In this document: positions 1 to 19,220 of the stretch, in pieces
How positions within the stretch are numbered: position 1 is the first letter of the stretch
Layout of the letters: every line of letters begins with the position of its first letter
NCBI GenBank assembly: GCA_024102725.1
Contig: JAGFJL010000047.1
Span: 1 to 40,000 of the forward strand
DNA length: 40,000 nt
Direction of reading: 5' to 3'
Source of the DNA: Nitrococcus mobilis
Lineage (GTDB): Bacteria; Pseudomonadota; Gammaproteobacteria; Nitrococcales; Nitrococcaceae
Notes under the pieces: model-generated
Databases searched by the model: none
Told to the model about the DNA's origin: nothing
The model's input: only the letters and a program-made list of their open reading frames with translations
Program-made: the position numbers and the translations under genes

Positions 1-1899
1 GGAGAAATGGGTAAAGCGCACCAGGAAGAATTGTTGCTGGCATTCAACCGTGGCGAGATACCCTTGTTATTCATTTCGCCGGAACTAGCCCTCGGGAAGG
101 CAAGGACGTTCCTGCTGGATGCGGCGAGACCCCCAGAGGAGAAGCCGAGTGCCGCACGCGGCCGGTTGATGGCTGTGTTTATCGACGAAGCACATATCGT
201 CGATAGTTGGGGACGCAGTTTCCGGCCCGATTTCCAACGCATCCCGGCGCTAGTGGCGAAGTTGCGAGAGAGTAACTCGCAGCTTAGGGTGCTGGTGCTC
301 TCCGCCACACTGGGAGATCAGGCCCACAAGGAACTACGACGCGGCTATGCGCAAGGTGCATTATTTCTGGCCATAGATGCCCAGGCTGCACGTTACGAAC
401 TCGACATGGTCTCTTTGGTCGAGTCCTCCGCGGCCGCTCGGGACAACACTGTCCTTAGGTTGATGGACCGGATACCGCGCCCTTGCGTCCTATACACCAC
501 CAAGGTGGATCACGCTCGCATCTTGTTCGATCGGCTTCGGCAGGAGCAAGGTTATCGGCGTCTGGCACTTTTCACCGGCGAGATCGAAGACGCGGCGGAA
601 CGTCGGCGCATTGTCCATGCTTGGAGCGAGGACCATATCGATGTAGTGGTCGCTACCTCGGCGTTTGGTCTCGGCATCGACAAGCAGGACGTGCGTGCCG
701 TCGTCCATGCCTGTGTTCCCGAGAGCGCCGCACGTTACTACCAGGAAATCGGTCGTGCCGCCCGCGATGGCCACCAGGCACTCGCACTTTGTGTTTGGCA
801 CAAGGAACCAGGTGCGCAATGGAGTGCAAAGGATGATCGCACCCTAGCATACGGTCAGGCAACCCGCCAATGGCTTACGGTCAATAAGGCGGTTGCTCGA
901 TGGAAAGCAATTCTGCGGGAAACGAATCGGCCAGGTGGGTACGAAACCCAAGACGGGAAGCAGTTTATGAATGTCCCTCTGGATGCCTTGCGTACTGGCC
1001 TTGGGAGCGAGTCATCCGAATACAACAGAAACTGGAACCAGACTCTGCTGAACTTGTTGCAGCGTGCCGGAGTTATCGCCATTCACACAGTCGAGGAAGA
1101 TGACTATGAAGGACCGGTATGGCGAATCGAAGTAAAGGATTCAAGGATAATGGACGTATCGCCCGAGGGCCAGGGTGTTCTCGAAGACATCTTCTCACTG
1201 CGTGATGAGGAAAAGCAGGCGGCACGAGAGGACGTTGATCGCCTAGTGGCAGTGCTTTCCGGCGATACCGACGGTTGTCAGTTGGCTACTTTGTTTGAGG
1301 CAGTGGAGGCAGGACATCCCACTGTAGATGAGTGCGGCCGTTGCGACTGGTGCCGGAGTTACGACATACCGCCGCCGACACATGTCACGTTCAAGGGTTT
1401 GGCCGACACCTGGCCAGAGCCCATATCCCTGCGAGAAACGCGTCTGCCGGCGGGAATTACCGTCCTCCACCCAAGAGGGCCCATCGATAGCAGCGGATTT
1501 GGAAGGCTACTAGCCAATCTGGCTGCTGCCGGTGTAGAGCAGTTCGTTGTGCCTGCAGGGTTCGGTGGAGATGCGGCCAAACGGTTGCGCGCCTTGCCCG
1601 TGGTCGCCGGGTGCGTGCTTGAAGACCGTCAGTTGCTCGACCGCTCGGGCTGGGCCATGGCGGGCATGCCGACGGCGATTCTACTCTCCGAGGAGACGCG
1701 TCAAGTTGATTCATTGTATCGCCGGTGCGAAGACTGGTTTGCTGCTCATTCGGATCAGCCACTGTTGTTGGTCGCCCCGCGTGGGCTCCACTTGCGCGGT
1801 AGACCACTAGAGCAGATAGCCTCGCGCACGGCAGCTTACAGTGAAGAGATATTGAGTAGCTGGGCGTTGCCAGAAGCGGTCAGGCATATCTCTCAGTAG
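1..1899 (+). CDS. RecQ-family SF2 DNA helicase, N-terminus outside the window (possible DpdF-type helicase, unverified)
   Basis: The frame is open from nt 1 (GE precedes the first M at nt 7). Motifs: FIDEAHIVDSWGRSFRPDF (DEAH box with the RecQ-type WGxxFRPxF tail), LSATL (motif III), ATSAFGLGIDKQDVRAVVH (motif V), YYQEIGRAARDG (motif VI) and CGRCDWC (RecQ-Ct style zinc motif). Walker A and roughly 90-100 N-terminal residues must lie upstream. The C-terminal ~170 aa carry no motif I recognise. Confidence 0.85.
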   Translation, partial: GEMGKAHQEELLLAFNRGEIPLLFISPELALGKARTFLLDAARPPEEKPSAARGRLMAVFIDEAHIVDSWGRSFRPDFQRIPALVAKLRESNSQLRVLVLSATLGDQAHKELRRGYAQGALFLAIDAQAARYELDMVSLVESSAAARDNTVLRLMDRIPRPCVLYTTKVDHARILFDRLRQEQGYRRLALFTGEIEDAAERRRIVHAWSEDHIDVVVATSAFGLGIDKQDVRAVVHACVPESAARYYQEIGRAARDGHQALALCVWHKEPGAQWSAKDDRTLAYGQATRQWLTVNKAVARWKAILRETNRPGGYETQDGKQFMNVPLDALRTGLGSESSEYNRNWNQTLLNLLQRAGVIAIHTVEEDDYEGPVWRIEVKDSRIMDVSPEGQGVLEDIFSLRDEEKQAAREDVDRLVAVLSGDTDGCQLATLFEAVEAGHPTVDECGRCDWCRSYDIPPPTHVTFKGLADTWPEPISLRETRLPAGITVLHPRGPIDSSGFGRLLANLAAAGVEQFVVPAGFGGDAAKRLRALPVVAGCVLEDRQLLDRSGWAMAGMPTAILLSEETRQVDSLYRRCEDWFAAHSDQPLLLVAPRGLHLRGRPLEQIASRTAAYSEEILSSWALPEAVRHISQ

Positions 1900-2002
1900 A
1901 GAGCAAATTCCAGCCACGAAAGAAGCGCTCGATCGCTGGAATGCTTTGAACGCACTGACGATAAAAGAGACGTAGGAAAAAGGCCGTGGAGATCCATCTG
2001 TA

Positions 2003-2896
2003 ATGAGCTTAATGACCGATATCCAGGGGACGCCAGCGCGGGTTTGGTCCCTGGTCAGTCTACTCCGGGCCCACGGCGGCGAGTTGAGCCGCGAGGGCGT
2101 AAAGGGCTGGCTCGATCCCTTCGACACGGACACCAAGGGCACAGCCATCTCGAACACCATCCGCGCGGCAGCTAGTCTGGAATTGATTCAATCCGACTCC
2201 ACTTCATACTCACTGCAATTGAGGTCGGACAAAATGCCCGAAACCCTGATGGGTTTCGCGGACCGTGTCCACACGAAACTCGTGGAGACCCCAGCAGACC
2301 AGGGCAACAGCGTGATCCTGGAAGTTTATGCTTGGTTCGTTGCGAACTGCGCCCGGGAGAAGGGGACGACCTGGGTCGAGCGGGAGAGTGCAGATAGCTT
2401 GACCGAGAAGATTCGTGTCGCGATCACTCCAGAGGGTCAACCGGGACGCTTCAATTCGACCCGGTACACACGTTGGCGCGATTGGATCGCCTTCACTGGG
2501 CTCGGCGTGGATCTACCCATCCCCCGCGGCCAGTCATTCTACCCTTCCGCTACCGTTAGGCTGGACCGTGAACTGGAAGCCTTGCGCCACCGTTTCGGCA
2601 TCGGGGAACAGGTTCCGGCAGACATGTTCCTGGACGCCTTGGTTCAGCGGATGCCATACCTGGATGGCGGACATCTGTTTCTGGAGGCCGCCGGGCGCAT
2701 TGGTTGGTCTCCGCCCGCGCGGCAGCTCTCCATTGTTTTCAGTTCCGCGCTTAGGGAGTTGGACGATGAAGGCGTCTTGGAACTCAAGATGCTCGGCGAC
2801 GCGCCCAACGCCTTTGCGCTCCACCATGACCCGACACACAGGAAACAAGCCTTCGTATCAGTTGTGCTGAATCCGGGCGAGGCGAAAAATGGCTGA
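2003..2896 (+). CDS. hypothetical protein, second gene of the helicase operon (size and position compatible with DpdG, unverified)
   Basis: 297-aa ORF. Its stop overlaps the next start by 8 nt (ATGGCTGA). No catalytic motif recognised. It is the dominant ORF in this stretch; the antisense ORFs are shorter and Arg/Pro-rich. Confidence 0.6.
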   Translation: MSLMTDIQGTPARVWSLVSLLRAHGGELSREGVKGWLDPFDTDTKGTAISNTIRAAASLELIQSDSTSYSLQLRSDKMPETLMGFADRVHTKLVETPADQGNSVILEVYAWFVANCAREKGTTWVERESADSLTEKIRVAITPEGQPGRFNSTRYTRWRDWIAFTGLGVDLPIPRGQSFYPSATVRLDRELEALRHRFGIGEQVPADMFLDALVQRMPYLDGGHLFLEAAGRIGWSPPARQLSIVFSSALRELDDEGVLELKMLGDAPNAFALHHDPTHRKQAFVSVVLNPGEAKNG

Positions 2897-5800
2897 ACTC
2901 CCAACTAAAGCCTGCTGGGAGGCGGAAGATGCACGAATCATTCTGGCGAACGAAGCGCTGGAGCGAAATGATCCTGTATTTCTGGCTACCCACTCTCCGG
3001 TCGAAGGCTACCAAGTCGGCGGGAGTCACTCCAGTGACATTACCGAGCACACCGAGCAAGGTTTGCTCGATGCCCTCTCGGCGTCCTCCAACCACCATGC
3101 ATTCTGCGTAGTGGAAGGAGAGCCCGGATCGGGCAAGTCCCACCTCATCCGCTGGCTTGCGGTTCGCTGGCCCAAGGATGAGTCCCTGCAACCACTCCTC
3201 ATCCAACGCCTGGACGGTAGCCTTCAGGGGACGCTCCAGCAACTGCAAAGGGCCTTGCCGGAGGAACACCAGCACCTGTTCGAGCAGATCGGTCGTCCAC
3301 AAGACCGGACCCTGGCTGGGCGCGCGGGCCTGTTTCTCAAGACGCTGGCCCAGTCCTTGCGCCCAAACTTTTTCGTGAATCCACCTGAAGACGCCGAATG
3401 GTGTGAGCGATTCGGGCTTGCCGAAATACTGGACGACACAGCCCTCGTCGATCAATGGAAAGCGCCAGAGCGCATCATCGAACTCCTGTCCGGCAAGAAG
3501 GGTAAGCGCGACCAGGAACTGGCACGCTTCAATCTCCAGGACATGGCGGAACTCGAGCAGTTGATTCGACCGCTGGGGGCACCGACACCAAGGGCCGTAC
3601 GATTCAAGAACGAACTGAAAAAAGAGGCTCAGGCGATCCGGCAGTTGGCGCAGCAGGAGTTGGTCAATCCCGCCGCCCAAGAAGACTTGCGGCGCCGCTT
3701 CGACTACAGCTACAAACTGGTGGATGCCCTAAACGAGCGCCACAATAGTGCGGTGCAGAACGTCCTGGGCATCTCCACCGACGGCTTGAAGGAGTTGTTC
3801 CTGCGTCTACGGCGTGAGTTGCGTGACCGACGCCTAGTGCTGTTGCTGGAGGACATCACCGCCTGGGAGGGTGTGGACCGGCAGTTGATCGACGTGCTGG
3901 TCACCAACGTGGAGACACGCCAGGACCAGGACTTGTGTCCCATGATCTCGGTGGTAGGCGTAACGCCGGCCTATTTTCAGAACCGCAGTTTCAAGGCCAA
4001 CTACACCCAGCGCATCACCCACCACATCAGGCTGGGCGATCCCAGCGACACGCAGAATTACCAAGACGTGTCCGCCCTCCGCGCACCAGAATCGCAGATC
4101 GCGTTCGCAGCAAAGTATTTGCGGGCTACCCGGGCCGGCGTGCAACAACTGACCGAATGGGACGGTGGTCCTGACCCTGTGCCGAATCGATGTAACACTT
4201 GCCGCCACAAGGATCCGTGTCATCGCGAATTTGGCAATCACGAAGGGGTGGGGCTTTTTCCCTTTACCGAACAGGCCATCATCCGGCTGTACGGACTCTT
4301 GCGGGATCCCCAGCATATGGCCACCTACCAGACACCGCGCGGGATGTTACAGGGTGTGCTCTCTCCGACGATGCAGCACCCGCTGGACCTGGAGGCCGGT
4401 GAGTATCCCGGCCCTGAGATCGAGACTGACCTGATTCCCGAGGACGAGCGCAAATTGTTCGATCACGGACAGTTGGCGGATGTGCTCGAAGTCCGCATCG
4501 ACGATAGTAGAATCCGGGAGCGCGTGCGGCGCCTGGTGGCGTATTGGGGCGTGAAGGGTACTACGGCCACGAGCACCTTGGCGGACGGCGAAGGGGCGTT
4601 GGTCTACGGAGGCGTTCGGCAGGGAATTTACCAAGCACTCGATCTGCCATGGCTTGGTGATGAAACACCGGGCGGAGTTGTTGCCCCAACACAGCCAGAC
4701 CCCAATCAGCCAGTGGTGAATTCTCCGACTTCCCCCAATACTGGCGATGGGGGATCCGGCGGAAGTGCAAGGCCCGGACGACAGGATCAAGGGGAAACGG
4801 CAAGGCGGCGAATGCCTGACGGACCCCGCCGCATGACCGCCACACAGTTGGTGCGTGTGAAACAGGATATTGGCCGTTGGGTCGAAAGCAAATCGCCCGA
4901 ACGCCCTACTGAACTGAATCGACTCGCCTACGAAATCTTGGATAGATTGAACTGGACCCATCTGGAAGTGACACCGTGGATTCGGTCACGCGTGTTCACG
5001 GAGGATACGGTCATTCTTAGGGATACGAAGCCGGCAAGAGGTCCATACCTGATCCTTGACCGGGAGCCTTGGGTCGCGAAGGGTATCGGGGCGTATCAGG
5101 CGTTGCGCGCCGGTACCGACGACATGCCTGACCAGGAGATCGAAAGCTATCGGCGCAACTACGCCACCATACAACGCAAGCTGGGGTCGTTGGTATGTGA
5201 CAAGGTGAGGGAACGGCTTCCCAGTCTGAAAGGAGGGATAACTTGGGAAATTCTCGGCACCGCTGCTCAGATCCTGCTTGCCAGAGCGTGGTTGCGGGGC
5301 AATGTACCCCCCTTAGCCGACAGTTGGGAACAATGGCGGGCTGTGATTCGTGATGAAGGCGAAGCCGTCAGCAATCCGCAGGATCGCGTGGACAGTTGGA
5401 GCGCCTTGGTAGATGCCACGGGAGGAAGTCATGGAGTTCTGCGTAAACTTCTACGTCGATCTCTGAATCTTCCGGAGTACCAGCCTGACCCAGAGCAGGA
5501 TAAGGACACGTCGTTGGCCCACGTGGATTACCAACTCGTTGCTGCATTGGCCAACTCGCCGCAGACCTTCCAAACGCTGCCTCAACCCTCATCGCTTCAG
5601 GGGTTGGGTGAAAAGCTCTCAGAACTAAAGCGGTTGGCGGAAATCGCCGGAGAGGTAAACAAGCAACTCAAGAATATCCCGCGCTACGAGACTGAGAGAT
5701 TGGCTGGTCGCGCAAAGTTCGTGGAGCGTGTGTCGAGAGGTTCTTCCATTCGCCAGCACATTCTGCGGGTAGACAAAGTGGTGGAAGAGATCGCCAGACA

Positions 5801-6197
5801 TTTTCCCAACAACGTTGCAGAACCGGTTCAGGCGTGGCGCAAGGTCAGGCAGGACCTTGAGAACCAAGGTTTTCTCGCGGATGGTGTCGATTGCGCCGGT
5901 GCCACTGTCGAACAATTCATGGACCGAGTGTCAGATGGTGATGTTCCAAAACCAGAGGATCGTGCGCAAGCGCTTTCGTGGACCTTGGAGGCACCTGCGA
6001 ATGCCCTAAGAGTCGCCAATAAGGGATTTGAGGTTGCCGAAGATACCGTCGGTCGTTTGCTTGCGTACGTTGAGGAGTACCTAGAAGGAGCCTCAGGTGG
6101 AGGTGGAACGATAGAACAGGTCCGCGAAACGGGGGTGCGTATCCAGCAGGCGGCAGATAAGGCCATTAACGGTCTGGAGGAAGCATCCAATGGCTGA
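2889..6197 (+). CDS. large P-loop NTPase (1102 aa) with widely spaced Walker A/B and a long helical C-terminus
   Basis: Walker A GEPGSGKS at aa 77-84. Walker-B-like RLVLLLEDIT at aa 315-324, about 230 aa later, with a helical insertion between. Cys/His knuckle CNTCRHKDPCH. Pro/Gly/Ser-rich linker PTQPDPNQPVVNSPTSPNTGDGGSGGS. Long helical tail. Both termini are translationally coupled to the neighbouring genes. Confidence 0.8.
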   Translation: MAELPTKACWEAEDARIILANEALERNDPVFLATHSPVEGYQVGGSHSSDITEHTEQGLLDALSASSNHHAFCVVEGEPGSGKSHLIRWLAVRWPKDESLQPLLIQRLDGSLQGTLQQLQRALPEEHQHLFEQIGRPQDRTLAGRAGLFLKTLAQSLRPNFFVNPPEDAEWCERFGLAEILDDTALVDQWKAPERIIELLSGKKGKRDQELARFNLQDMAELEQLIRPLGAPTPRAVRFKNELKKEAQAIRQLAQQELVNPAAQEDLRRRFDYSYKLVDALNERHNSAVQNVLGISTDGLKELFLRLRRELRDRRLVLLLEDITAWEGVDRQLIDVLVTNVETRQDQDLCPMISVVGVTPAYFQNRSFKANYTQRITHHIRLGDPSDTQNYQDVSALRAPESQIAFAAKYLRATRAGVQQLTEWDGGPDPVPNRCNTCRHKDPCHREFGNHEGVGLFPFTEQAIIRLYGLLRDPQHMATYQTPRGMLQGVLSPTMQHPLDLEAGEYPGPEIETDLIPEDERKLFDHGQLADVLEVRIDDSRIRERVRRLVAYWGVKGTTATSTLADGEGALVYGGVRQGIYQALDLPWLGDETPGGVVAPTQPDPNQPVVNSPTSPNTGDGGSGGSARPGRQDQGETARRRMPDGPRRMTATQLVRVKQDIGRWVESKSPERPTELNRLAYEILDRLNWTHLEVTPWIRSRVFTEDTVILRDTKPARGPYLILDREPWVAKGIGAYQALRAGTDDMPDQEIESYRRNYATIQRKLGSLVCDKVRERLPSLKGGITWEILGTAAQILLARAWLRGNVPPLADSWEQWRAVIRDEGEAVSNPQDRVDSWSALVDATGGSHGVLRKLLRRSLNLPEYQPDPEQDKDTSLAHVDYQLVAALANSPQTFQTLPQPSSLQGLGEKLSELKRLAEIAGEVNKQLKNIPRYETERLAGRAKFVERVSRGSSIRQHILRVDKVVEEIARHFPNNVAEPVQAWRKVRQDLENQGFLADGVDCAGATVEQFMDRVSDGDVPKPEDRAQALSWTLEAPANALRVANKGFEVAEDTVGRLLAYVEEYLEGASGGGGTIEQVRETGVRIQQAADKAINGLEEASNG

Positions 6198-6900
6198 AGC
6201 ACCCGATCCAGATTCGCTGGAGCGCCTGGAATTGTTGTCCGGGCAAATACAGCGTGCCAAGGACCAGCACCGATTCGGCGACGCGCTAGATGCGGCGGTG
6301 CGCGCCGTCGATGATGCCGAGAGTGTAATCTCGCAATTTGAAAAACTCGCCGGATTTTCGGGGTTGGTTAACGGCTTTCTCGATCCATCGGACCGGCAGC
6401 ATTGCCTTGTCCTTCTGACGCGAGTGCGAACCCTGGGGCAGCAGCTTCCCCAGGTGTCCGACACTGCGACGTTGCAGGATGGGACAACCAAGGTTTCGCA
6501 ATTGCCGAGTCAGGTCGAGCAGGCCGATGCGATCATAAACCGCGGCTGGAAGGCAAAGATCGACCAGGCATTCGCTGCAACCGGTGAACTCGGCGGTGTC
6601 TTGCGGGAGATTCCCGAAACCCGGCAACTGGGCTCGGAAATGGAGGCGATCGCACTCCAGGCAGGGCAGCTCAAGACAGATTTGGAGGACGCTGAAAGAA
6701 GCATAGCCCGATTTAAGGCCCTGGTCGCCGAACGGGAAGGCACCACGGACAGCTTGACAAATTTGGGGGCGGGGAAAGAGGTGGTGGACTTCCTGTTCGC
6801 CGTGGCGAACCAGTCGGCCACGCTTGAAACCGTAACCGCAGAGGTCCGGAGTTGGCTTGATGAGCGGAATGCGCTTGCACGCTTCAAGGTGGGGTTATAG
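6190..6900 (+). CDS. hypothetical helical/coiled-coil protein, last gene of the + strand operon
   Basis: 236-aa ORF. Its start overlaps the upstream stop by 8 nt, with the same ATGGCTGA junction as at 2889. Ala/Leu/Glu/Gln-rich helical composition. No enzymatic motif. Confidence 0.6.
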   Translation: MAEAPDPDSLERLELLSGQIQRAKDQHRFGDALDAAVRAVDDAESVISQFEKLAGFSGLVNGFLDPSDRQHCLVLLTRVRTLGQQLPQVSDTATLQDGTTKVSQLPSQVEQADAIINRGWKAKIDQAFAATGELGGVLREIPETRQLGSEMEAIALQAGQLKTDLEDAERSIARFKALVAEREGTTDSLTNLGAGKEVVDFLFAVANQSATLETVTAEVRSWLDERNALARFKVGL

Positions 6901-7008
6901 CCGACCTGGCCGTCTGCTTTTCGAAGTATACCTGGATATTTCCGTCAATCCTATTCGGTGTCTATAGGACATGGCGCACTCGCTGATATTATTGGCCTTG
7001 GAGACAAG

Positions 7009-10000
7009 TCAGGCTGTCAGTCGCTCCAATAATCGCAGACTGACGACTGCCTCTGCCAACGCTGCCGGCATCAGGTCACTACCAGTGTGAAGACACCCTT
7101 GACACCCGTCCACACACAGTCGTGCGCTCAACCGATAAACCTGATCCGCCAACCGGGCTTCGGCTCCAAGCGACTCTTCCTGGCTTGCCTCATCCAACCC
7201 TTGATAGGCGCTAATAAGCTCAGAAAGCCTGGGAGTTGCAGGGGCGCTGTCTGCCGCAGCGCGGACGACAGCGCTCACCAGTTCCCACTGGGATGCTTCC
7301 CTGGCCATGGTATCTCGGAGGCGGGCATCGATTGCGGTTATTTCTCCGTGCAGGCTGTAAAGGTCGAAACGTTGCGTCCCGACAGATTCAGTTCCGTAAA
7401 GGAGGCGTAGCACGCTTTGCATCGAACCTTCCTCGACAGCAGATCCGAGCCCCAGTTCCGCCGCTAGTCCGGCCATTTGCTCGGGATTGCGTGGGTCGAG
7501 ACTGCGCCACTCCTCATGCCGGTGGATTTTCTGGAACGCCTGTTCGATGATGGCGTCTTCCCTTGCGTTCGGGCAGTCGGCGAGTCCACCGCTGGACCAG
7601 TCTGCAAGAACTGCTTCGAGATTGTCCACGAACATCCTGGTGGTACCGTCACCATGTGCCCCGTTCTCAGCCACGGTGATGACATCCTCGGCGTCGGCTC
7701 CGAACTGTATCGGCAATTTCGCGTGGATTAGTACCTGGCGATCGTCGCCACGACCGTGCAGGACGAATGCTTGCTTGAGCCGGATGCTGAAGCTGTGTAC
7801 GAGGACGCTGCGCAGGTAGGCCGCGAACTGGTCTTCGGAGCTTACAGCCTCTAGGGCTTGCGCAAAGACATGTTGAAACTTGCGGTTACCCAGGCTGTCG
7901 GCAAGGCGGTCCACCCGTCGCTCGGAAAGCAAGGGATGGTAGGCCAGCATATCGGTGAAGGTCTGTTGCAGTAGGTTGCGCAGCGTCTGGCTGTCCCAGC
8001 GGCGGACCAAGCCGCGTAGTCTGTCGCGCAGTTCAGGGTGGCCGGCGGCGCTGAATAGCAGGTCGGCGGCGCGGTTTGCTTCGTAGGCGTTGATGCCTGC
8101 CGCACGGGCCTGACTGCCGATTAGGTAGCGGAACATCTGACCCCGGTGCCATCGGCCGTCCGGGTGTTCCCGTTGGCGCTCGACTTCCGTCTGGATGAAG
8201 TCGGTCAGGTAGGCACTGTTTAAGCGCAGACGTACACCTTCGGTCTGCACCCGATAGCCGTGCAACAACGTCTTGCTGGAGCGGGGATGGATGAAGGTCT
8301 GGGTGATGGGAATATCCGGCTGGTCCGGATCCATTAGGCGCAGTTCAACGTCAGCGCCCCAGGTGAGGGACGTCAATGCCAGCCCGGTTTGGTTACCCTC
8401 CATGCGGCCGCCGATGTATGCCTCGAAGCGCTCGCCGAAACGTTCGATCCCACGGATTGAGATGGCGTGGCCGCTGTCAGGTTGGGCTTCCACGTACGTG
8501 AAAGCGCGTAGGTTCCCTCGGCTCTTGGGATGGACCTTGAGGCCATTGTCGGGCTCGCTGGTGTCAATGCGCTGGACAGCCCTCTTCTCGGCGTCGTAGT
8601 ACCAATGGGCTGTCCAGCCGGCGCCCAGCATTCTGCCTGCCGTTTCCAGGACCACGCCGTTGGGGTGGCAAACGTTGGGATGGATGTCGGGGCCAACCTC
8701 TTCACGTGCCTCTACAGGGAGTTCCCGGAGCAGGGCATCCGGTCCCTTCTTCAACGGGGGTATCTCGAATCCATTGGAGACTTTGTACACCTCGTCGCTA
8801 AGCCAGGGCATCCGGCCTGCTCTTGGCGGCAGCCAGTGCAACAGGCTGAAGCCATAACGGCGTGTCATGTTGCCGGGGGTGGCGGCCTCGAAGGCCAGGT
8901 TTATTGCTTCGTCCTGCGAGCGGGCTTCGCCCCGTTCGCTCTCAAAGTGCACCGCCAGGGCTGGCAGGTTAGCGGTGGCGAACAGAGTCTTAGCTATCCA
9001 GGGAAGGGATTCGCGCAAGTCTCTTAGGGACATGTGCGAACTAAATGATATTGAAACTTCGTCTGTCGCTTGACGCCACAGGTTGTCCAGGCTCTCTGCC
9101 TCCAGTTGCCGATAGATCTCGGCACCAAAAATCGTGTGGACAAGGTGTTCGGCGAACTGCTGGGTTTGTTTGTTCAACCTGCTTCGCCCGTCCACGATCG
9201 TCAAACCGGTCCTGCCGTGCACGGTCGTGTGGCGGGCGAGGGCATCCAGCAAGGTTGCCAGCACCTGTCCCCGGCGCACGAAGTAGTTGGCCGCGTTGAG
9301 GGGGACGTCGAAATGGGCGCTGTCCAGCATCCGTTGGGGGCGGCGGAAGTACCAGGAATCCCGTGGGGAGTAGGGGGAGAGGGTGACGCCGGTGACGGGT
9401 CGGTCGTCCACGCCACGGCCGCCTCTGCCCTTGCGCTGGATAAAACTTGCCAGGTTGTTGGGGGCATAGTGCTGGTAGACCAGAGCCATATCCGGATCGT
9501 CGTAGCCAACTTCCAGCGAGGAGGTGGTGAAGACGATATCCGAGCTGCGGATCATTTCCTCGACCTTGCCTTTTTCTCCTGCAAAAACTGGGCGTTGGGA
9601 GACGATCAGGGCGTTGCCGGGACGGTAACGGCCGCGCGCCGTTACCTGGGCGTTGTCGGTGGCCGCAAAATACCAGCACTCCCCTTCGCGGAAACGGTCG
9701 CAGGTGGCGGGCTGGCCGCAGCACTCCCGGCGAGGCTGGCTGTTGCCGAGGTCGTCATCGAACAGACGGGTGCGTAGTGCGGCTAGATGGCGAGCTTCCT
9801 CGGCGTCCTGATAGTCACCGTGCAGGCGCTTGAGTTTATCGATGGAGTCAAGGAACACAATGGCACGGTAGCCGCCGTCACGTCCGGTGCGCCGACGCAT
9901 GCCGTGGGCCAGGCACATCAGACTCTGGATACTGGTTGAGGCGCCGGCGATGTCCTGTCCCCGGGACTCGACCTCCGGCTGGACGAAATAGAAGTATTCG

Positions 10001-13000
10001 CGGCCGCGCGGGTTCCGCCGACGCTCGCCGGGTTCGGGGCGGAGTTCGACGACTGGGTCGCGGCCGATCAGTTCGCCCCACACCCGAGCGGGATCACCGA
10101 GGGTGGCGCTCATGCCGATGGCTAGTGGCCTCGGTTGTTCGGGTCCGTTGATGGCCGATCGTGCCAGCAGGCGACGCAGGGTGTAGCCGACCTGAGCGCC
10201 GTGGATATGGGTATAGAGGTGGATCTCGTCGGCCAGGATCGCCCGCGGCGGCGGATGGGGGGCGATGTCGCCGAACAGGGCCCCATAGGCCGGGTTCTGC
10301 TGCCACTGGTGCAGGGACTCAGTGACCGGAAGGAAGAAGTCCGGCGGCTGCTGCTGCAAGGCGAGCTTGGAGCCTACCCAGCCGTCGAATGCCCAGGTGC
10401 ACCGGGTGCAGGCAAGTTGGTCGGCGCCCGCATGTCCCTTGCCCGGATGCAGGTGCAGGTCGCCGTCGCAATCCGGGCAGGCGAAGAAAGGAAAGCGCAA
10501 TGCGCCGCCAGGGGCGGTGGTCCAGATTCCGCTCAAGTACTCGGGGATGGTCTCGAATTGACCCGGAACCTGCCAGTTCTGCAGCCCCAAGGTAAGGGCG
10601 GGCAAGCCGCCGACGTTGGCGAGAGAGGCGAGATAGCCCGTGATGCGCTGGGCCTGATTCGCCGCAAGCCGCACCCGTGGGTAGACGAGTACGGCACGAG
10701 TTCCTTGGATGCCTTGCAGGCGGTCGTAGGCGGCACCGGCGATCAGCGGCAGACAGGCCGCCTCGGTCTTCCCGGCCCCTGTATCGGCGGTGATGACGAA
10801 GGTGTTGTCATCGCTACGGCCCAGCCAGGCGGGGAAGATGGTGCTCAGGGCGCGCACCTGGAAGCCGGCGAGGGGCGGATCGTCGTGGTTCCAGTGCTTG
10901 CGCAGCATGGCCTCCAGGCCATGCAGGACGTGGCGGGCCGTCATGTTTTCGCCGACGCCGTCTTGGATCTCCTGCATGACGGTAGACAGCGAGCGGTCCC
11001 GCACCGGCTTGTCGCGGTCCCGCACCTCGACCTTGAGTGAGCGGACCAGGTAGGGACGCCGGTCGGCGTCGCCGACGGCAAAACGCTGTTTAACGTAGCG
11101 TACCTCGCGGGCGAGTTCCGCCATGCGGCTACGGATTCTGCCTTCCTCGTCCATCGCTAGGTGGCCGTGGGACTGGAGTCGGCGCAGAGCGTCCGATACC
11201 TGGCCCCTGGACGTTTGCAGGCTGGTAGCCAAGTCGGGCAGAGAGGTCCAGCCCTCGTAGATGCCAAAGTTGATGCGCTGGACCTCCTTATCCTCCAGGT
11301 GGTTGAGGACCTCGAAGTCCTTGTCGGACAGGGGCTCCTTGGGGGATTCCTCCACATCCTCGGGAGTGGGCGCCTGTTCCAACCACTCCACGGTGGCGGA
11401 ACCGTTCACTTCCTTGATCTCGACCAGTCCCTCCCGGGCCATGGCTTCGATAACGGGCCAGACGCGGTCGTCGCCCGCGGTGTCCATCCAGACGAAGCGG
11501 TGACGGATGACGTTTTCGTAGAAGGAGGCATAGCGCCCGCGGCGTACATGGGTGGTGACCTCCTCCAGGCGGTCCCGCACGGTCTGGGCATCGCCGGGGA
11601 AAGGTGGACGGGGCGGGTCCAGGGGCTTGGCGGTCCAGAATGGGCCGAATCGGCCGTGCTTCTGGTTCAGTTGGATGTGGCCCAGGCGTACCAGGTCGCG
11701 CAGTTGGCCGAAGGGAACCGGGGACGACAGGTACAGCTTCTTCTTGATCTCGTAGTCGGCTGCGGTGCCATACGGATTCTTGATGGCGATCTCCCGGATG
11801 GCGGCCAGCAGTTCTTCCAGTTCTCTGGTGAATTCGGGCAGGGCCTCGGCCGGTTCCTCATCCGGGGCGTCGATGAGGGGCGGCAGTTCGCCGTCCTCGG
11901 TGAATCCTCGGACCCGGACGTTGACTGGGACCTTGCGGCCCGTGTTGTCGGTGATGTGAACGGTTCCCACCTCCGCGCTGTCGAACACCAATTCACGCAG
12001 GATCTGGGCCGCATCCAGCGTATTTTCATCCGGTGGCACCACGTCCAGGAGGCGGCGGCTGACGATCAGGATCAGCTTGGTCCGGGCGCGGGTGATGGCG
12101 ACATTTAGCCGTTCCACGCTGAATATAAAGTCCGCCTCGGCCAGGGCGAACTCCGGGTCGGATACTGTGTAGCTGGCGATGATGGCGTCGCGCTCCTTGC
12201 CCTGGATCTTGTCCACGGTCTCCACTACGGCGCCGTTCCCGGCCGGGTCGTTGGCAAGGGCGGCGCGGATGGCGGCATTCTGGGCCCGGTGGGGACTGAC
12301 CATAGCGAGTCGCTCCTGCCACACGGTCGCGGACGGCGTGGCATCTTGAGGCTCTCCGGTTGTCATCGCGGCATGCAGCCGGCGCGTCAGTCGGGCGGCA
12401 ACCGCGACCTCGAAGGGATTGGATGTACCCGCCGGGGGGCCGTCGTGTAGCAGAACGCAGAGGGGGTACTCGGGATCCAGAGCCAAGCGCTCCCAGTCCG
12501 CCAACCCATCGGCCCAGTCCCCGGCGAGTTGCAGGCGCTGGTGTTCAGATGCGTCGGTTGGGCGGTAGCGACCGGGGTAGAACTTGGACTCTGGGAAGCA
12601 GGTCAGCGGGGCATTGAGCCGGAAGGTCTCATCCAGCGGGTACTCTGCCACCTCGGCGGACTTGAGAAAGTCGTAGAGGGAGCCGCCGAGACGGCGCCCC
12701 TCAATCTCCTGAGTGTGGACGGTCCGCACCGGGGGCAGTTGCTTGTCGTCGCCGGCCACCAGGACGCGGCCGCCGGGGGCAAGCCCGGCTAGCGCCATGA
12801 GGCCGTTGCTGACCACCATCTGGGAAGCTTCGTCGATACAGACCAAGTGGAACAGGGGCGAGGTGGGCCCGTCGGTGACGGCCGGTTGCCCGGCATTCAG
12901 CAGTTTGTTCAGCGCCCACACCGAGCAGCCGACGATGAGGTGCTCGGTCTGCAGGGCATCCCACGCCTCGGCGGCGGCTTCGCGTTGCCGGAAGGAGATG

Positions 13001-13443
13001 TGCCGGATGGCAGGGCTGAGCCCGCTGCCCCGCTGGCTGCCCAGGTAGAGCACGTCCGGCGGGGAGGGCACATAGCGCGCCGATTTGGACTGGATGGCAT
13101 CGAGCAGATTGCCGATGGCGTTCAGCGTAAAGGCGTTGACCAGAATTCGGCAGGGCAGTCCAGCCGCCCGGCGGGCCTGCAGGTAGCCCAGCGCCATCCA
13201 AGCCAGCACGTAGGTCTTGCCGGTGCCAGGCGGCCCCTGGATAAGGCCGACGCGTTGCTCGGCCAGCCTGTTCCAGGCGGTGATTTGGGCCTGGCGCAAG
13301 GGGAAATCACCTTTCTCGTCGATCTGCGGTTGCGCGAAGTTCTCCAGTCCCTGGCGCCAGAGTCGGTGGTCGTCCTCGGGCAGGGTGCGGGCAAAGACCT
13401 GGGGCGCCCTCAGAAACTGGAGTATGTCCGCTCGCACGCTCAT
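7009..13443 (-). CDS. 2144-aa double helicase: N-terminal SF1 (Upf1/Dna2-like) helicase, winged-helix-like middle, SF2 DEAD/DEAH helicase, C-terminal DUF1998/MrfA-type Cys cluster
   Basis: - SF1 part: GPPGTGKT (aa 70-77), CIDEASQM (aa 202-209), VAGDDKQLPPV, SPHRAQ, VDKIQGKERD, NVAITRARTKLILI.
- SF2 part: ADTGAGKT (aa 885-892), ADEIH (aa 1071-1075), MSATLG (aa 1111-1116), QRKGRGGR (aa 1336-1343). A CPDCDG...CTRC zinc-ribbon insert sits at aa 989-1015.
- C-terminus: CVDGCQGC, about aa 2110-2117.
- The 6.4-kb ORF is uninterrupted. Its start overlaps the upstream nuclease stop (ATGA). Confidence 0.9.
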   Translation of the reverse strand: MSVRADILQFLRAPQVFARTLPEDDHRLWRQGLENFAQPQIDEKGDFPLRQAQITAWNRLAEQRVGLIQGPPGTGKTYVLAWMALGYLQARRAAGLPCRILVNAFTLNAIGNLLDAIQSKSARYVPSPPDVLYLGSQRGSGLSPAIRHISFRQREAAAEAWDALQTEHLIVGCSVWALNKLLNAGQPAVTDGPTSPLFHLVCIDEASQMVVSNGLMALAGLAPGGRVLVAGDDKQLPPVRTVHTQEIEGRRLGGSLYDFLKSAEVAEYPLDETFRLNAPLTCFPESKFYPGRYRPTDASEHQRLQLAGDWADGLADWERLALDPEYPLCVLLHDGPPAGTSNPFEVAVAARLTRRLHAAMTTGEPQDATPSATVWQERLAMVSPHRAQNAAIRAALANDPAGNGAVVETVDKIQGKERDAIIASYTVSDPEFALAEADFIFSVERLNVAITRARTKLILIVSRRLLDVVPPDENTLDAAQILRELVFDSAEVGTVHITDNTGRKVPVNVRVRGFTEDGELPPLIDAPDEEPAEALPEFTRELEELLAAIREIAIKNPYGTAADYEIKKKLYLSSPVPFGQLRDLVRLGHIQLNQKHGRFGPFWTAKPLDPPRPPFPGDAQTVRDRLEEVTTHVRRGRYASFYENVIRHRFVWMDTAGDDRVWPVIEAMAREGLVEIKEVNGSATVEWLEQAPTPEDVEESPKEPLSDKDFEVLNHLEDKEVQRINFGIYEGWTSLPDLATSLQTSRGQVSDALRRLQSHGHLAMDEEGRIRSRMAELAREVRYVKQRFAVGDADRRPYLVRSLKVEVRDRDKPVRDRSLSTVMQEIQDGVGENMTARHVLHGLEAMLRKHWNHDDPPLAGFQVRALSTIFPAWLGRSDDNTFVITADTGAGKTEAACLPLIAGAAYDRLQGIQGTRAVLVYPRVRLAANQAQRITGYLASLANVGGLPALTLGLQNWQVPGQFETIPEYLSGIWTTAPGGALRFPFFACPDCDGDLHLHPGKGHAGADQLACTRCTWAFDGWVGSKLALQQQPPDFFLPVTESLHQWQQNPAYGALFGDIAPHPPPRAILADEIHLYTHIHGAQVGYTLRRLLARSAINGPEQPRPLAIGMSATLGDPARVWGELIGRDPVVELRPEPGERRRNPRGREYFYFVQPEVESRGQDIAGASTSIQSLMCLAHGMRRRTGRDGGYRAIVFLDSIDKLKRLHGDYQDAEEARHLAALRTRLFDDDLGNSQPRRECCGQPATCDRFREGECWYFAATDNAQVTARGRYRPGNALIVSQRPVFAGEKGKVEEMIRSSDIVFTTSSLEVGYDDPDMALVYQHYAPNNLASFIQRKGRGGRGVDDRPVTGVTLSPYSPRDSWYFRRPQRMLDSAHFDVPLNAANYFVRRGQVLATLLDALARHTTVHGRTGLTIVDGRSRLNKQTQQFAEHLVHTIFGAEIYRQLEAESLDNLWRQATDEVSISFSSHMSLRDLRESLPWIAKTLFATANLPALAVHFESERGEARSQDEAINLAFEAATPGNMTRRYGFSLLHWLPPRAGRMPWLSDEVYKVSNGFEIPPLKKGPDALLRELPVEAREEVGPDIHPNVCHPNGVVLETAGRMLGAGWTAHWYYDAEKRAVQRIDTSEPDNGLKVHPKSRGNLRAFTYVEAQPDSGHAISIRGIERFGERFEAYIGGRMEGNQTGLALTSLTWGADVELRLMDPDQPDIPITQTFIHPRSSKTLLHGYRVQTEGVRLRLNSAYLTDFIQTEVERQREHPDGRWHRGQMFRYLIGSQARAAGINAYEANRAADLLFSAAGHPELRDRLRGLVRRWDSQTLRNLLQQTFTDMLAYHPLLSERRVDRLADSLGNRKFQHVFAQALEAVSSEDQFAAYLRSVLVHSFSIRLKQAFVLHGRGDDRQVLIHAKLPIQFGADAEDVITVAENGAHGDGTTRMFVDNLEAVLADWSSGGLADCPNAREDAIIEQAFQKIHRHEEWRSLDPRNPEQMAGLAAELGLGSAVEEGSMQSVLRLLYGTESVGTQRFDLYSLHGEITAIDARLRDTMAREASQWELVSAVVRAAADSAPATPRLSELISAYQGLDEASQEESLGAEARLADQVYRLSARLCVDGCQGCLHTGSDLMPAALAEAVVSLRLLERLTA

Positions 13444-15737
13444 TCGGGTGCCTCACCGAGGAACGCCATGAAGTTCGCCGCCCTCCCGGTGGTGAAGTCC
13501 TTAAAGGTGCGGTCAAGGAACCAGCCGGCTTCTCCGGTTTCCCGGAGCAGGCGCTGAAAGTCATCGCCCTCGTAAAGCGTGGCAGGGACGTTGACCAGCA
13601 GGGTGCCACTATTGGCGAAGTCGGGCCGCTCGGGGGCGATTCGTGCCTCGAAGTTGGGCCAAAACTGGGGGTTGAGCCGGATGTCCGGATTGTCGTCGGT
13701 GAGGATGAGGTCGAAATTATTGGATGACAACTCGCTCTCCCGGCTTTCCGGCGGCACGGAAAACAGCATGCCGTATTGGCCCCAATTGGCCTTCCAATGC
13801 CTCAAAAGGGTCATCTGGGCGATGCAGCGGGCCCGATCGCGCCGCTGGCTGAAGGGCTGGGCCAGGGAGACCAGGGCCTCCAGCATGCCGGTGCGGTTCT
13901 CCAGGAGTTCGAAGGCGTGAAGCAGGTCCAGGTCCACGGCGTTGAGCGGGTCCAGGGTCTGCTGAAAGCGGAAGGGCCGCTTGTTCAGGCGCAGGAAGGC
14001 ATAGTCACCGCCCTGTTTAAGGGCAGTGGCGTTCTTGTGCATCAGCCACTCGGCCAGCGCGCGCATGGCATCCAGGCGGGCGATGACATCCTGGCGTACC
14101 GACTCGGGCTCGATGCGCCCGTCCCGCAGATCGCGACATACGTCGATGGACAGGCGGGACGAGAAGGGGCGGCGGAACGGAGGGTCAGGGGCGTAGGCAG
14201 GCGAAAGGGCTGGTTCGGTGTTCGCCAAGGCGCCGGTCACCTGGCGCAGGTCGTAGGCCACCATGACCGGCAATGCATAGACCTGCTCAACTACGCTGCG
14301 CAGGGCGGTGGCCGGAAGATGATGGATTCCGCGGAATTCCGGCTCGGGGACCACGTCATCGGGAGGAAACATGCGGATCAGGTGGAGCAGGCCAGTTCGT
14401 ACCAGCGGATTTTCCAGGTGGCGCGCCACTGCGTACTGCAAGCCGGCGGCCTCCGAAGGCTCATATAAAAAAATGTGGGCCTGGATCTGCTCCGCGGGTG
14501 AATCCTCGTGGGCGGTGTTGTGGCGGTCGATGGCCGCCAGGTCCGTGACCAGTTGGCCCAGGACCTTGCACAGCGCTTCGCTCTCCCGTTCCGGGCTTCC
14601 AGCGGGCAAGACCTCGACCAGGTATTCGTTGTTCCCACCCTCACTACGCAGGTACCCGAGCGTGATGAGGTTGTCCTCCACCGGATCGACATCGACGACG
14701 AGGTAGAGGCCCACGTCCACTCGCGGCGGCATCAGGTAACTGGCGACACCCGGTATGCGCTGGACTTCGCCGGCGACCAGTGCCTGGGCACGCCGCGTCA
14801 GCAGTTCAGCCCGTCGGCGCAGCGCCCAACTGCCGGCGCTAGAGGCCCGCAGCCCTCGGGCTTCAGCGAGCTTGCCAACTTTGTCAGTGCCCAGCCGATC
14901 TAATGCCCGTTTGGCCTCGTGAGAGACCCCGGCAACCGCCGACACATCCCGTTCCGCAGGCAGAATCCTTTCGTCAATGGACTGGCTGCAATGGCGCAGA
15001 TACTCACATTGTTCGCACTTGAAATATATATGGAAGAAGGTGTTGTCCCAGGTGGACGACACGATACTCTCCGCAATTACGGGTATCTCGTTGGACAAAA
15101 AGTCCGCAACCAGGCGTTGGTAGGGCTCTAGCCGGAATTCCTCGGCGCGGTAGAGGCCATCCTCGCCCTTGCTGCCTGGTGGCAAGCACCAGATCTGGCC
15201 GGTTCGATCCAAGACGCCCGGTGCCCTGAGGGCGGCGAGGGTTGATTGAAGCACCAGGCTGTAAAAAGCCACTTGTGCTTTGTGGAAGGTTGTAGCGCGT
15301 TGGGTGGCTTTGATGTCGATGATCTGAAAGCGGGGTTCGGAGTCGCCCCGCTCAATCCGAACCAGGTCCGGTAGAGCTCGTCTGACCGTGACGTCTTTGG
15401 AGAGTCCGAGTTGTTCTCGCAGTTGACTGTGGGACTCGAGGACCAGCTGGTGTGCATAGGTTTCTGATCGGCGGCCCTTAAGGAACGCCGTGGAGAGATC
15501 TTGCGAGAGATAGTCCTCTCCAACGGCTGGGCCCAAAACGCCGACTTCCGCGGCCAAGCGTGATACCACCTTCCGTTCGAACTTGTTGCCCAGTTGGGCC
15601 CAGGCCGGAATCACTAGATCCCGCAGGATCGGGATTTCATCGCGCTCTTTCCCGGTGAAGGTATCGTACCGGGTCTTTCGTGGGCAGCGATACTGAAACC
15701 AGGATTTGACCGTAGAAGCGCTGAAGGCGAGGGGCAT
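13440..15737 (-). CDS. RecB/Cas4-like PD-(D/E)xK nuclease with Fe-S cysteine signature and a C-terminal RNase-H-like region (TM0106-type architecture, inferred)
   Basis: C18 (YRCPRK), D124 (PDLV), D141-I-K143 (IIDIKAT), Q155xxxY159 (KAQVAFY), then C241-x2-C244-x5-C250 (CEQCEYLRHC). This is the Cas4/AddB pattern of one N-terminal Cys plus CX2CX5C. Downstream are an HhH-like VAGVSHEAKRALDRLG and a block LYLVVDVDPVEDNLITLGYL ... HIFLYEPSEAAGL, which resembles the RNase-H-fold domain of TM0106-type RecB-like nucleases. Confidence 0.75.
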   Translation of the reverse strand: MPLAFSASTVKSWFQYRCPRKTRYDTFTGKERDEIPILRDLVIPAWAQLGNKFERKVVSRLAAEVGVLGPAVGEDYLSQDLSTAFLKGRRSETYAHQLVLESHSQLREQLGLSKDVTVRRALPDLVRIERGDSEPRFQIIDIKATQRATTFHKAQVAFYSLVLQSTLAALRAPGVLDRTGQIWCLPPGSKGEDGLYRAEEFRLEPYQRLVADFLSNEIPVIAESIVSSTWDNTFFHIYFKCEQCEYLRHCSQSIDERILPAERDVSAVAGVSHEAKRALDRLGTDKVGKLAEARGLRASSAGSWALRRRAELLTRRAQALVAGEVQRIPGVASYLMPPRVDVGLYLVVDVDPVEDNLITLGYLRSEGGNNEYLVEVLPAGSPERESEALCKVLGQLVTDLAAIDRHNTAHEDSPAEQIQAHIFLYEPSEAAGLQYAVARHLENPLVRTGLLHLIRMFPPDDVVPEPEFRGIHHLPATALRSVVEQVYALPVMVAYDLRQVTGALANTEPALSPAYAPDPPFRRPFSSRLSIDVCRDLRDGRIEPESVRQDVIARLDAMRALAEWLMHKNATALKQGGDYAFLRLNKRPFRFQQTLDPLNAVDLDLLHAFELLENRTGMLEALVSLAQPFSQRRDRARCIAQMTLLRHWKANWGQYGMLFSVPPESRESELSSNNFDLILTDDNPDIRLNPQFWPNFEARIAPERPDFANSGTLLVNVPATLYEGDDFQRLLRETGEAGWFLDRTFKDFTTGRAANFMAFLGEAPE

Positions 15738-15839
15738 GGGTTACCGCTGAATAAATTCTTATTCCCTTGTCATGGGACACTATACATTAAGGTGACCGGC
15801 CGATGACGTATCGTTTTGGGGAAGTTCGCTCGGTACAGT

Positions 15840-16745
15840 TGACCTGCCCCCGCAATTAGGACCGCGTTCCAGTTAGCTCAGTCCGCTCAGTCAACTACCT
15901 CCCAGGGGCAAGATCCCAGGGAGAATTCCTGCCGCCAGTAGGCGGCAAATTCGGCCGGCACCAAATAACCCAGCGCCGAATGCGGTCGCTTTTCATTGTA
16001 ATCACGTCGCTAGGCCGCGATCTCGGCTCGCGCATGGGCGAGACTCGTAAACCAGTGCTCGTTCAAGCACTCATCCCGTATAAGTTGCACTCCCCGCTCA
16101 TAGGCCCATTGGTCGAGTGCCTTACCCGTGAACTCCGGCCCCTGGTCGGTTCGGATCGCTTTGGGCACACCCCGGAACCGTACCGCCCGTTCCAGAGAGC
16201 GCACCACGTAGGCGCCCGGGATGCTGCAATCGACCACAATGTCGAGTGCCTCCTTGGTGAAGTCATCGGGGCGCTCGGCAGCTCCAGAGGTTCACGATTC
16301 ACCGCCACACCCTGGCGCCGCCGACGCTTGCGCACCGCCAAGCCTTGCTGCTGATAGTGGCGCAGCACCTTCTTATGGTTGACCACCACGCCTTCGCGCC
16401 GTAGCAGCGCGTGAATCCGCCGATACCCGAATCGCCGCCGCTGTTGCGCCAGATCCATGATCCGGCCCCGTAGCGCTTCGTCTGAGGCGCTGGACATGGC
16501 CTAATAGCGCAACACTGACCTCGAGATCCCCACAAGCCCGCATGCACTTCGCTCCGAGACGCCGGTGCGCTCGCACATCTCCGCCACCGCCTCACGCTTT
16601 GGCTTGTGGAGTCAGTACTTTCCCGACAGCGCTGCCTTCAGTGCCTCGTTATCGAGCATCGACTCGGCCAGCAACTTCTTCAGCCGGGCGTTCTCCGCCT
16701 CCAACGATTTGAGCCGCCGGCGCAGATTGCGCGGCGGGCCGGTAT
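15840..16745 (-). mobile_element. IS3-family (IS407-group-like) element, 3' two-thirds: orfA C-terminus, decayed orfB, outer inverted repeat
   Basis: The outer end reads TGACCTGCCCCCGCAATTAGG from 15840 inward; IS407-group ends as I recall them start TGACCTGCCCCC. The orfA tail is RRLKSLEAENARLKKLLAESMLDNEALKAALSGKY (16612-16745). Its 5' portion is found separately at 19500-19592. Confidence 0.75.
15891..16611 (-). pseudogene. IS3-family orfB (DDE/rve transposase) pseudogene
   Basis: Reads KREAVAEMCERTGVSERSACGLVGISRSVLRY*AMSSASDEALRGRIMDLAQQRRRFGYRRIHALLRREG, with an in-frame TAG. A frame change and loss of the NQxWxxD...DDFT segment follow near 16260-16290. Then DCSIPGAYVVRSLERAVRFRGVPKAIRTDQGPEFTG and AEIAA*RRDYNEKRPHSALGYLVPAEF, where TAG sits where W is expected. 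Confidence 0.8.
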
Positions 16746-16978
16746 ATCGGAGCAGACGCTGTACCGCTGGCCGGATGGGTTTCTCAGCGCGGGCAAGCAG
16801 GCGATGAACGGCCGTGCCATGCGCAACGAGCAAGCCAAGGCGATCGAACGTCTGCTGGGCGAGCTTGCTGAGCGCAACCAGGTCATCGGCGAGCTCACGG
16901 TCGCTAATCGCATTTTAAAAAACCCCCGAAGGCCGGCGGCCTGCCCGGAGAAAGAGAAACTCGGGCCTGCGCTAGACT
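16735..16978 (+). pseudogene. 5'-truncated HTH transposase orfA fragment of a second element (element X)
   Basis: The + strand reads AQIARRAGISEQTLYRWPDGFLSAGKQAMNG...AIERLLGELAERNQVIGELTVANRILKN. This is an HTH followed by a leucine-zipper-like segment, typical of IS3-like orfA proteins. There is no start codon and no upstream IR. It abuts the antisense IS407-like orfA at about 16740. Confidence 0.55.
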
Positions 16979-17155
16979 GAGCGCACTCCGAGGGGAGCGG
17001 CCGTTGACTTTTTGGTGGACCACCCCGTTTAAAAACGTGGCCCAGGGACTGTAGCGGACCCGATAGTGGTGACGCGCCTGTGCGATCCCGGTTAGGAAAA
17101 TGATCCATTCCGCCATCCCGCCCTTCGGAGGATTTTTGCTCGAAGGAGGACAGTG

Positions 17156-17940: not shown

Positions 17941-17990
17941 TGCCCCGATTTGGTGGAGCCTTCAAAGTGCTCAAATGGAGGGCATCCACT

Positions 17991-19191: not shown

Positions 19192-19220
19192 AACTTCCAA
19201 CTCTCCACGAAATCGGGGTA

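Follow-up and report, generated by a model that had tools for sequence, protein, structure and literature searches.

The first 15,737 positions of a 40,000-nucleotide stretch of DNA from Nitrococcus mobilis (contig JAGFJL010000047.1 of a metagenome-assembled genome, or MAG; the stretch is hereafter called the window, and all positions refer to it) very probably encode the restriction module of a Dpd (7-deazaguanine) system that is carried as cargo of an integrative and conjugative element (ICE). In this reading, the genes at 1-6900 are dpdF, dpdG, dpdH and dpdI, and those at 7009-15737, which converge on them, are dpdJ and a nuclease gene. In Dpd systems, DpdA and DpdB insert 7-cyano-7-deazaguanine (preQ0) into DNA, DpdC converts preQ0 to 7-amido-7-deazaguanine (ADG), and the proteins DpdD to DpdK give restriction (PMC10164549). 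The chances are about even that the set found here is, beyond this, a distinct and so far undescribed Dpd subtype: a fixed six-gene block in which a nuclease and an extra helicase replace DpdD and DpdK, which has been spread by ICEs and plasmids, and which is invisible to the naming of the Prokaryotic Genome Annotation Pipeline (PGAP). The block was followed through 67 loci, retrieved with a DpdH profile from representative genomes of 185,579 species.

Four co-directional open reading frames (ORFs) on the forward strand form the first operon, where an earlier note on this DNA had put them. The gene dpdF (1-1899) is open from base 1 and is cut at its 5' end by the window edge, dpdG (2003-2896) encodes 297 amino acids, dpdH (2889-6197) encodes a P-loop NTPase of 1102 amino acids, and the dpdI-like gene (6190-6900) encodes a helical protein of 236 amino acids that is translationally coupled to dpdH. 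The two 8-nt overlaps that the note described are present at the dpdG/dpdH (2889-2896) and dpdH/dpdI (6190-6197) junctions, and the same string, ATGGCTGA, is found in both. At each of these overlaps, the upstream protein ends in NG and the downstream protein begins with MAE. The junction between dpdF and dpdG is a gap of 103 nt with no overlap. As also described before, the operon converges on a reverse-strand operon encoding a helicase and a nuclease, with 108 bp between the two stop codons (6901-7008). No convincing terminator was found in this spacer, and scans for promoters, terminators and repeats gave no signal above shuffled background.

Family assignment was based on NCBIfam, PADLOC and Pfam profiles, with the curated equivalog cut-offs of NCBI serving as the yardstick. 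From gene sizes and order, the earlier note had proposed the series dpdF-dpdG-dpdH-dpdI, and this proposal is borne out by strong profile matches for DpdF, DpdG and DpdH, and at the family level only for DpdI (NCBIfam E-values of 2.5e-108, 1.3e-16, 2.5e-84 and 0.008, respectively). For DpdF, a RecQ-like superfamily 2 (SF2) helicase, the NCBIfam score of 363.8 bits against a cut-off of 550 was obtained with the window-cut protein, which aligns to model positions 229-789 of 813; from this alignment, about 230 N-terminal residues are lost at the window edge. The PADLOC model for DpdF aligns to residues 11-619 (E = 9.5e-134, 445 bits). The C-terminal extension of about 170 residues that had been taken as unrecognised is covered by the DpdF profiles, and is thus a feature of the DpdF family. 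The same protein matches recQ_fam (3e-33), and it carries a DEAH motif at residue 62 and a CxxCxxC motif at residue 445.

DpdG aligns from residue 1 to 277 with positions 1-281 of the 290-position NCBIfam model, scoring 60.8 bits against a cut-off of 80, and its PADLOC match is weak (E = 5.7e-6). The gene lies between dpdF and dpdH, as expected, and is found there in all 58 loci in which the three genes are ordered; the products of its relatives carry Pfam PF28110 (DpdG). No relative of DpdG was found when its profile was searched against the PDB.

DpdH matches its NCBIfam model in one collinear stretch, residues 8-1059 against model positions 2-989 of 1014, with a score of 284 bits against a cut-off of 450, and matches the PADLOC model PDLC02884 over its full length (E = 6.1e-188, 625 bits). 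The features that had been read from this protein are all present: a Walker A motif GEPGSGKS at residues 77-84, the Walker B motif LVLLLED at residues 316-322, a cysteine knuckle (C435-x2-C438-x5-C444-H445), and a disordered linker. The 21 homologues compared, at 35-86% identity, all keep Walker A, Walker B and the three cysteines without change. In the AlphaFold model, which has a mean pLDDT score (predicted local distance difference test) of 79.7, about 200 all-helical residues (112-310) lie between a strand at 103-105 and the Walker B strand at 316-323, in agreement with the helical insertion that had been proposed between the two Walker motifs. The linker at 597-646 is disordered, with pLDDT below 50, and a helical C-terminal domain occupies residues 651-1101. 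Searches of PDB sequences with the DpdH sequence and with the DpdH profile gave nothing meaningful. NCBI labels both the 1102-residue and the 236-residue products as hypothetical proteins.

The 236-residue protein, taken alone, matches the NCBIfam DpdI model at its last 40 residues with an E-value of 0.008 and a score far below the curated cut-off of 150 bits. Among its aligned relatives, DpdI is the top NCBIfam family for 29 of 35 (best E = 3.7e-9). Additionally, the family profile aligns at an hhalign probability of 95% (E = 4e-8) with the protein at the DpdI position of the dpd operon in Nostoc, a canonical operon annotated by PGAP on a plasmid of Nostoc sp. C057 (locus L071). An ORF at the dpdH stop codon was found in 59 of 59 loci; it is 225-258 amino acids in length, apart from one of 209 and one truncated at 169, and its start either overlaps the dpdH stop codon, usually by 4 or 8 nt, or lies only a few bases away. 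In more distant relatives, this overlap is usually of 4 nt. The C-terminal motif EVxxFLxAxAxxxATLxxVTxxVxxWL of the protein is conserved, and no fusion of DpdH and DpdI was present among the best 150 of 294 DpdI-like representatives. The 236-residue protein is best regarded as a fast-evolving, divergent homologue of DpdI, assigned at the family level and not as an equivalog. In a literature survey, dpdI and dpdD were the least often detected of the dpd genes (PMC12235509).

The second operon, on the reverse strand, consists of a dpdJ variant (7009-13443) encoding 2144 amino acids and a Cas4/RecB-type nuclease gene (13440-15737) encoding 765 amino acids, which overlap by 4 nt. The DpdJ protein matches the PADLOC profile PDLC02895 with 2036 bits, and the alignment runs from residue 1 to 2143 against a model of 2112 positions, including the part of the protein that resembles a superfamily 1 (SF1) helicase. 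The NCBIfam DpdJ model matches residues 713-1436 (2.7e-99), below its cut-off of 800 bits. Two helicases are joined in this protein. An SF1 helicase of the Upf1/IGHMBP2-like kind, recognised by Pfam AAA_11 and AAA_12, occupies the N-terminus (about residues 40-470), and a full DpdJ/YprA-type SF2 helicase (Pfam DEAD) extends from residue 713. Walker A motifs are found at residues 70 and 886 and a DEIH motif at 1072, while CxxC pairs at 989 and 1012 are inserted in the RecA1 domain.

The N-terminal domain of the 765-residue protein is a Cas4/RecB/Dna2-type PD-(D/E)XK nuclease (Pfam PDDEXK_1, 2.3e-5; TIGR03491, 8.5e-10). D123, D140-x-K142, Q154xxxY158 and C240-x2-C243-x5-C249 are invariant in 26 aligned sequences, and C17 is nearly so, being conserved in at least 90% of them. 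Together, these residues make up the signature of Cas4, AddB and Dna2, and the four cysteines form a pattern typical of Fe-S cluster binding. The structural model (pLDDT of 83.6) has its best Foldseek matches in Cas4, MGME1, Dna2 and AddB, with marginal E-values of 1e-3 to 1e-1 and probabilities of 0.69-1.0; the profile gave nothing meaningful against PDB sequences. In common with Cas4, AddB, Dna2 and MGME1, the protein thus has D...D-x-K, QxxxY, one N-terminal cysteine together with C-x2-C-x5-C, and a similar model, and it differs in having about 500 further conserved residues without family assignment. These residues, which follow the nuclease domain (13440-14700 in the window covers residues 340-765) and are matched by no Pfam family, are strongly conserved and include D348-x-D350, E384, H420, E425 and E428. 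Between residues 341 and 437, the order of strands and helices is like that of an RNase H/DnaQ fold, with weak Foldseek matches to DnaQ and YeaZ and no Pfam support. The identification of the nuclease with DpdD was rejected, as BLASTP against Nostoc DpdD gave an E-value of 1.6, and none of the six proteins that the converging operons encode matched DpdK in NCBIfam or PADLOC.

The six genes occur together well beyond this genome. A scan of genome contigs with a single DpdH sequence found no relatives, and it was the profile scan that retrieved the loci; megablast of window positions 1-16000 against plasmids gave only a 262-bp match at 74% identity. dpdF, dpdG and dpdH are ordered in 58 of the 67 loci, the converging dpdJ lies directly downstream in 52, and dpdJ and the nuclease gene fall within the fetched flank in 44; most loci outside these counts end at contig ends. 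The hosts include Alpha- and Gammaproteobacteria, Myxococcota, Acidobacteriota, Lentisphaeria and Vulcanimicrobiota. Cultured carriers of the variant are, among others, Methylobacterium sp. XJLW, Caulobacter sp. SL161 and Rhodomicrobium vannielii ATCC 17100. In comparison with one relative at 58-76% identity, the dN/dS ratios (nonsynonymous to synonymous substitution rates) are 0.08-0.21 for dpdF, dpdG, dpdH, dpdI and dpdJ, rough values as dS is near saturation, and dS of the nuclease gene is fully saturated. These five genes are under purifying selection, within the roughness of the ratios, and with the persistence of the ORF after dpdH they are held to be real genes. Cooperation of the two converging operons, as the note had supposed, is supported, as the second is made up of dpdJ and a nuclease gene, the six genes travel together, and dpdA and dpdB lie in the same window.

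In some loci, the modification genes are upstream of dpdF, and in others they are upstream of the nuclease gene. On a complete conjugative plasmid of Methylobacterium, PGAP names the modification and que genes only, and the six restriction genes appear as 'DEAD/DEAH box helicase', 'AAA domain-containing protein' or 'hypothetical protein'. In Sphingomonas sp. IC-56 (L075:12250-18582), dpdJ is interrupted: past the nuclease gene comes a gene for 316 residues on the other strand, and of the helicase only an ORF of 1679 amino acids is left, so that the block has decayed in this relative. Rhizobium sp. AC27/96 has a third DndB/DpdB-like gene (L074:8392-9597), which is encoded on the opposite strand and situated immediately upstream of the nuclease gene; genes for a haloacid dehalogenase (HAD)-like hydrolase and a Vut (YhhQ) preQ0 transporter are nearby.

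The window also contains the modification genes, all on the reverse strand. The first copy of dpdB (19607-20668) encodes a DGQHR/ParB-like protein that scores 369.6 bits against the NCBIfam DpdB cut-off of 300, dpdA (20631-21950) encodes a DNA transglycosylase of the tRNA-guanine transglycosylase (TGT) family with 505 bits against a cut-off of 200, and the second copy of dpdB (21947-23140) scores 455.5 bits against 300. They are followed by a gene for a 327-residue DUF6884 protein (23080-24063), the likely counterpart of DpdC, which passes the threshold of Pfam PF21818 with 40.9 bits against 30. Of 14 relatives of this protein, 4-5 match YaaA/DUF328 weakly and none matches the NCBIfam DpdC model; DUF6884 has been equated with DpdC in the literature (PMC12235509). 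Extra copies of dpdB are frequent, and no explanation has been offered for them (PMC12235509).

The preQ0 synthesis genes lie on the forward strand beyond the DUF6884 gene, as a queC remnant (24190-24410), a queE gene (24432-25065) that is broken into two frames, and queD (25062-25607), which is intact. The two queC fragments match residues 5-48 and 191-226 of a 247-residue QueC, and the frame of queE breaks near 24694-24698. The que genes are inverted relative to those of the relatives, in which queE-queD-queC lie immediately upstream of the nuclease gene; that site is occupied in the window by fragments of IS3 and IS110 transposase genes (16063-19300), between the nuclease gene and dpdB, which suggests a rearrangement of the que genes mediated by insertion sequences (IS). 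Most of an IS3-like ORF (18329-19300) is enclosed by the two arms of an imperfect inverted repeat of 39 nt (17940-17978 and 19183-19221). The damage to queC and queE is either decay of the preQ0 genes of the island or an assembly error of the MAG. The GC content is 0.52-0.55 in the dpdB-dpdA-dpdB block, 0.61-0.68 in dpdJ and the nuclease gene, and 0.56-0.60 in dpdF to dpdI, differences that hint at a mosaic origin of the modules.

At 28011-28550 and 32099-36652, the window encodes a NadS/MqsA-like protein of the helix-turn-helix antitoxin type, a MobH relaxase and an SXT-type TraD coupling protein. It is because the genes for the relaxase and TraD are nearby that the Dpd island is read as ICE cargo. 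Several ORFs at 26-32 kb have no family match.

Set beside the canonical Dpd systems, dpdA to dpdK of Salmonella enterica serovar Montevideo and the operon on the Nostoc sp. C057 plasmid, the variant has the same F-G-H-I order and similar protein sizes (the F, G, H and I models are 813, 290, 1014 and 239 amino acids in length), full-length collinear homology of DpdG and DpdH, and a DpdJ of the DpdJ/YprA type, and it likewise has dpdA, dpdB and the preQ0 genes in the island. It differs in having neither DpdD nor DpdK, a nuclease of the phospholipase D (PLD) type, and in having instead the 765-residue, four-cysteine Cas4/RecB-type nuclease in one operon with dpdJ. Furthermore, its DpdJ bears an additional N-terminal SF1 helicase of about 700 residues, and dpdJ is transcribed towards dpdI rather than following it. 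Two copies of dpdB flank dpdA, an arrangement that is conserved throughout the variant, and the counterpart of DpdC is a DUF6884 protein that is missed by the NCBIfam DpdC model. DpdE, an SNF2/BrxHII-like helicase, occurs only in non-alphaproteobacterial members of the variant, and in the closest relatives (L001 and L004) it is just upstream of dpdF, a site that here falls beyond the window edge.

The closest published parallel is BRIGADE, a Dpd-like system that has deazaguanine genes, DpdG, DpdH/I and a YprA helicase, and in some members of which a PD-(D/E)xK nuclease, operonic with a DpdJ-like gene, replaces the PLD nuclease (bioRxiv 10.1101/2025.09.15.676423). BRIGADE has been reported from halophilic archaea only, and its YprA helicases are usually two and ARMADA-like, whereas the present variant has bacterial hosts and joins its one DpdJ-type helicase to an SF1 helicase. 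DpdJ belongs to the YprA family of helicases, which is shared with DISARM and Druantia, and DpdH together with DpdI has been equated with BrxC of BREX (bioRxiv 10.1101/2025.09.15.676423). BrxC/PglY is, like DpdH, a large P-loop ATPase of a defence system that depends on modification. No BrxC profile in NCBIfam or PADLOC was matched, and the identification of DpdG with BrxB was not supported, at an hhalign probability of 0.2%. The variant has already been catalogued computationally, since PADLOC profiles already fit its DpdF, DpdH and DpdJ; no published description of it was found in the literature searched, which did not include the founding Dpd papers.

Several observations weigh against the assignment of these genes to a Dpd system. 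Every score of a restriction gene is below the NCBI equivalog cut-off, and DpdF to DpdJ are therefore to be regarded as divergent members of their families. In tblastn searches with the Nostoc proteins, neither DpdD nor DpdK was found in the window or in any variant locus, Nostoc DpdK matching only the canonical-type loci L064, L067 and L071; according to reviews, linkage of DpdD to dpdA is nearly universal. Foldseek of the DpdH model against the PDB found no relative. When compared by hhalign with one BrxC sequence (pEFER BrxC), the DpdH and DpdI profiles gave probabilities of 3% and 0.7%; by these profile comparisons, the link of DpdH/I to BrxC is not reproduced here, which leaves the published claim unrefuted. 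No individual role has been assigned to any of the proteins DpdD to DpdK (PMC10164549), and the division of labour proposed for them below is an inference. Lastly, the queC of the island is a remnant, queE is frameshifted and IS fragments split the modules, so that activity of the system in this genome is not assured.

The six genes might instead form a free-standing defence system similar to BREX, DISARM or Druantia, one that does not read 7-deazaguanine and lies only sometimes near dpdA and dpdB. In keeping with this, the fetched 10-kb flanks show dpdA and dpdB in no more than 24 of the 67 loci, helicases of the DpdJ type are also present in systems that do not depend on modification, and PGAP does not name these genes Dpd. 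However, the flanks stop just past the nuclease gene. In the three loci that were viewed from the nuclease side, all three carry DUF6884-dpdB-dpdA-dpdB-queE-queD-queC directly upstream of the nuclease gene, including one (L031, again as L074) that had seemed to be without modification genes, and the link to dpdA and dpdB is for this reason held to be tight. As DpdF, DpdG, DpdH, DpdI and DpdJ are also homologous to the canonical Dpd proteins and stand in canonical order, a free-standing system is quite improbable. That the genes serve DNA repair or the processing of ICE DNA, the RecQ-like helicase acting beside a helicase and nuclease paired in the manner of MrfA/MrfB or AddAB, can hardly be credited: the RecQ-like, YprA-like (MrfA family) and AddB/Dna2-like folds and the nearness of the locus to the MobH relaxase and TraD would fit such a role, but the block moves among chromosomes, plasmids and ICEs with dpdA and dpdB rather than with conjugation genes, and its best matches are to profiles of defence systems.

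A different question is whether the copy in this genome is a decaying remnant, Dpd in origin and no longer an active restriction-modification pair. The two fragments of queC, the split queE, the IS3/IS110 debris between the nuclease gene and dpdB, the inversion of the que genes relative to relatives, and the disrupted dpdJ in the relative L075 are what such decay would look like. Yet all six restriction genes, dpdA, both copies of dpdB and the DUF6884 gene are of full length and keep their motifs intact (dpdF being cut at its 5' end by the window edge), preQ0 could come from housekeeping genes for queuosine elsewhere in the genome, and in a MAG a frameshift may stem from faulty assembly. Moreover, restriction without modification would be toxic, so the intact restriction genes argue that modification still works. 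On balance, a remnant is an unlikely description of this copy.

For the Dpd restriction module, the following mechanism can be proposed, in which the roles of the modification proteins come from experiments on the Salmonella homologues of the genes identified here. DpdA, with the ATPase DpdB, would exchange guanine for preQ0 at specific sites in the host DNA, and the DUF6884/DpdC-like protein may convert preQ0 to the amido form. DpdH, an ATPase with intact Walker motifs and a zinc knuckle, probably acts in a stoichiometric complex with DpdI and perhaps DpdG, as suggested by the conservation of the 4- and 8-nt gene overlaps and by DpdI being neither fused to DpdH nor found apart from it in the 59 loci and the best 150 of 294 representatives. 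This complex might serve as an ATP-driven sensor or scaffold that judges whether the DNA bears the mark. The helicases DpdF (RecQ-like) and DpdJ (SF1 and YprA-type) would then load on unmarked DNA and translocate along it, and the Cas4/RecB-like nuclease may degrade that DNA, taking the place of the PLD nuclease DpdK.

The variant keeps DpdF, DpdG, DpdH, DpdI and DpdJ, has a Cas4/RecB-type nuclease in the place of DpdD and DpdK, and carries an SF1 helicase in addition. This swap marks F-G-H-I-J as the conserved core and the nuclease, with D140 and K142 in its predicted active site, as an exchangeable effector. Bacterial genomes in which a Dpd restriction module stands under generic PGAP labels only number in the dozens at least. 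If the subtype reading is true, the variant would be a second, independently evolved arrangement of the Dpd effector, and a comparison of both arrangements would separate the parts that sense the base from those that cut.

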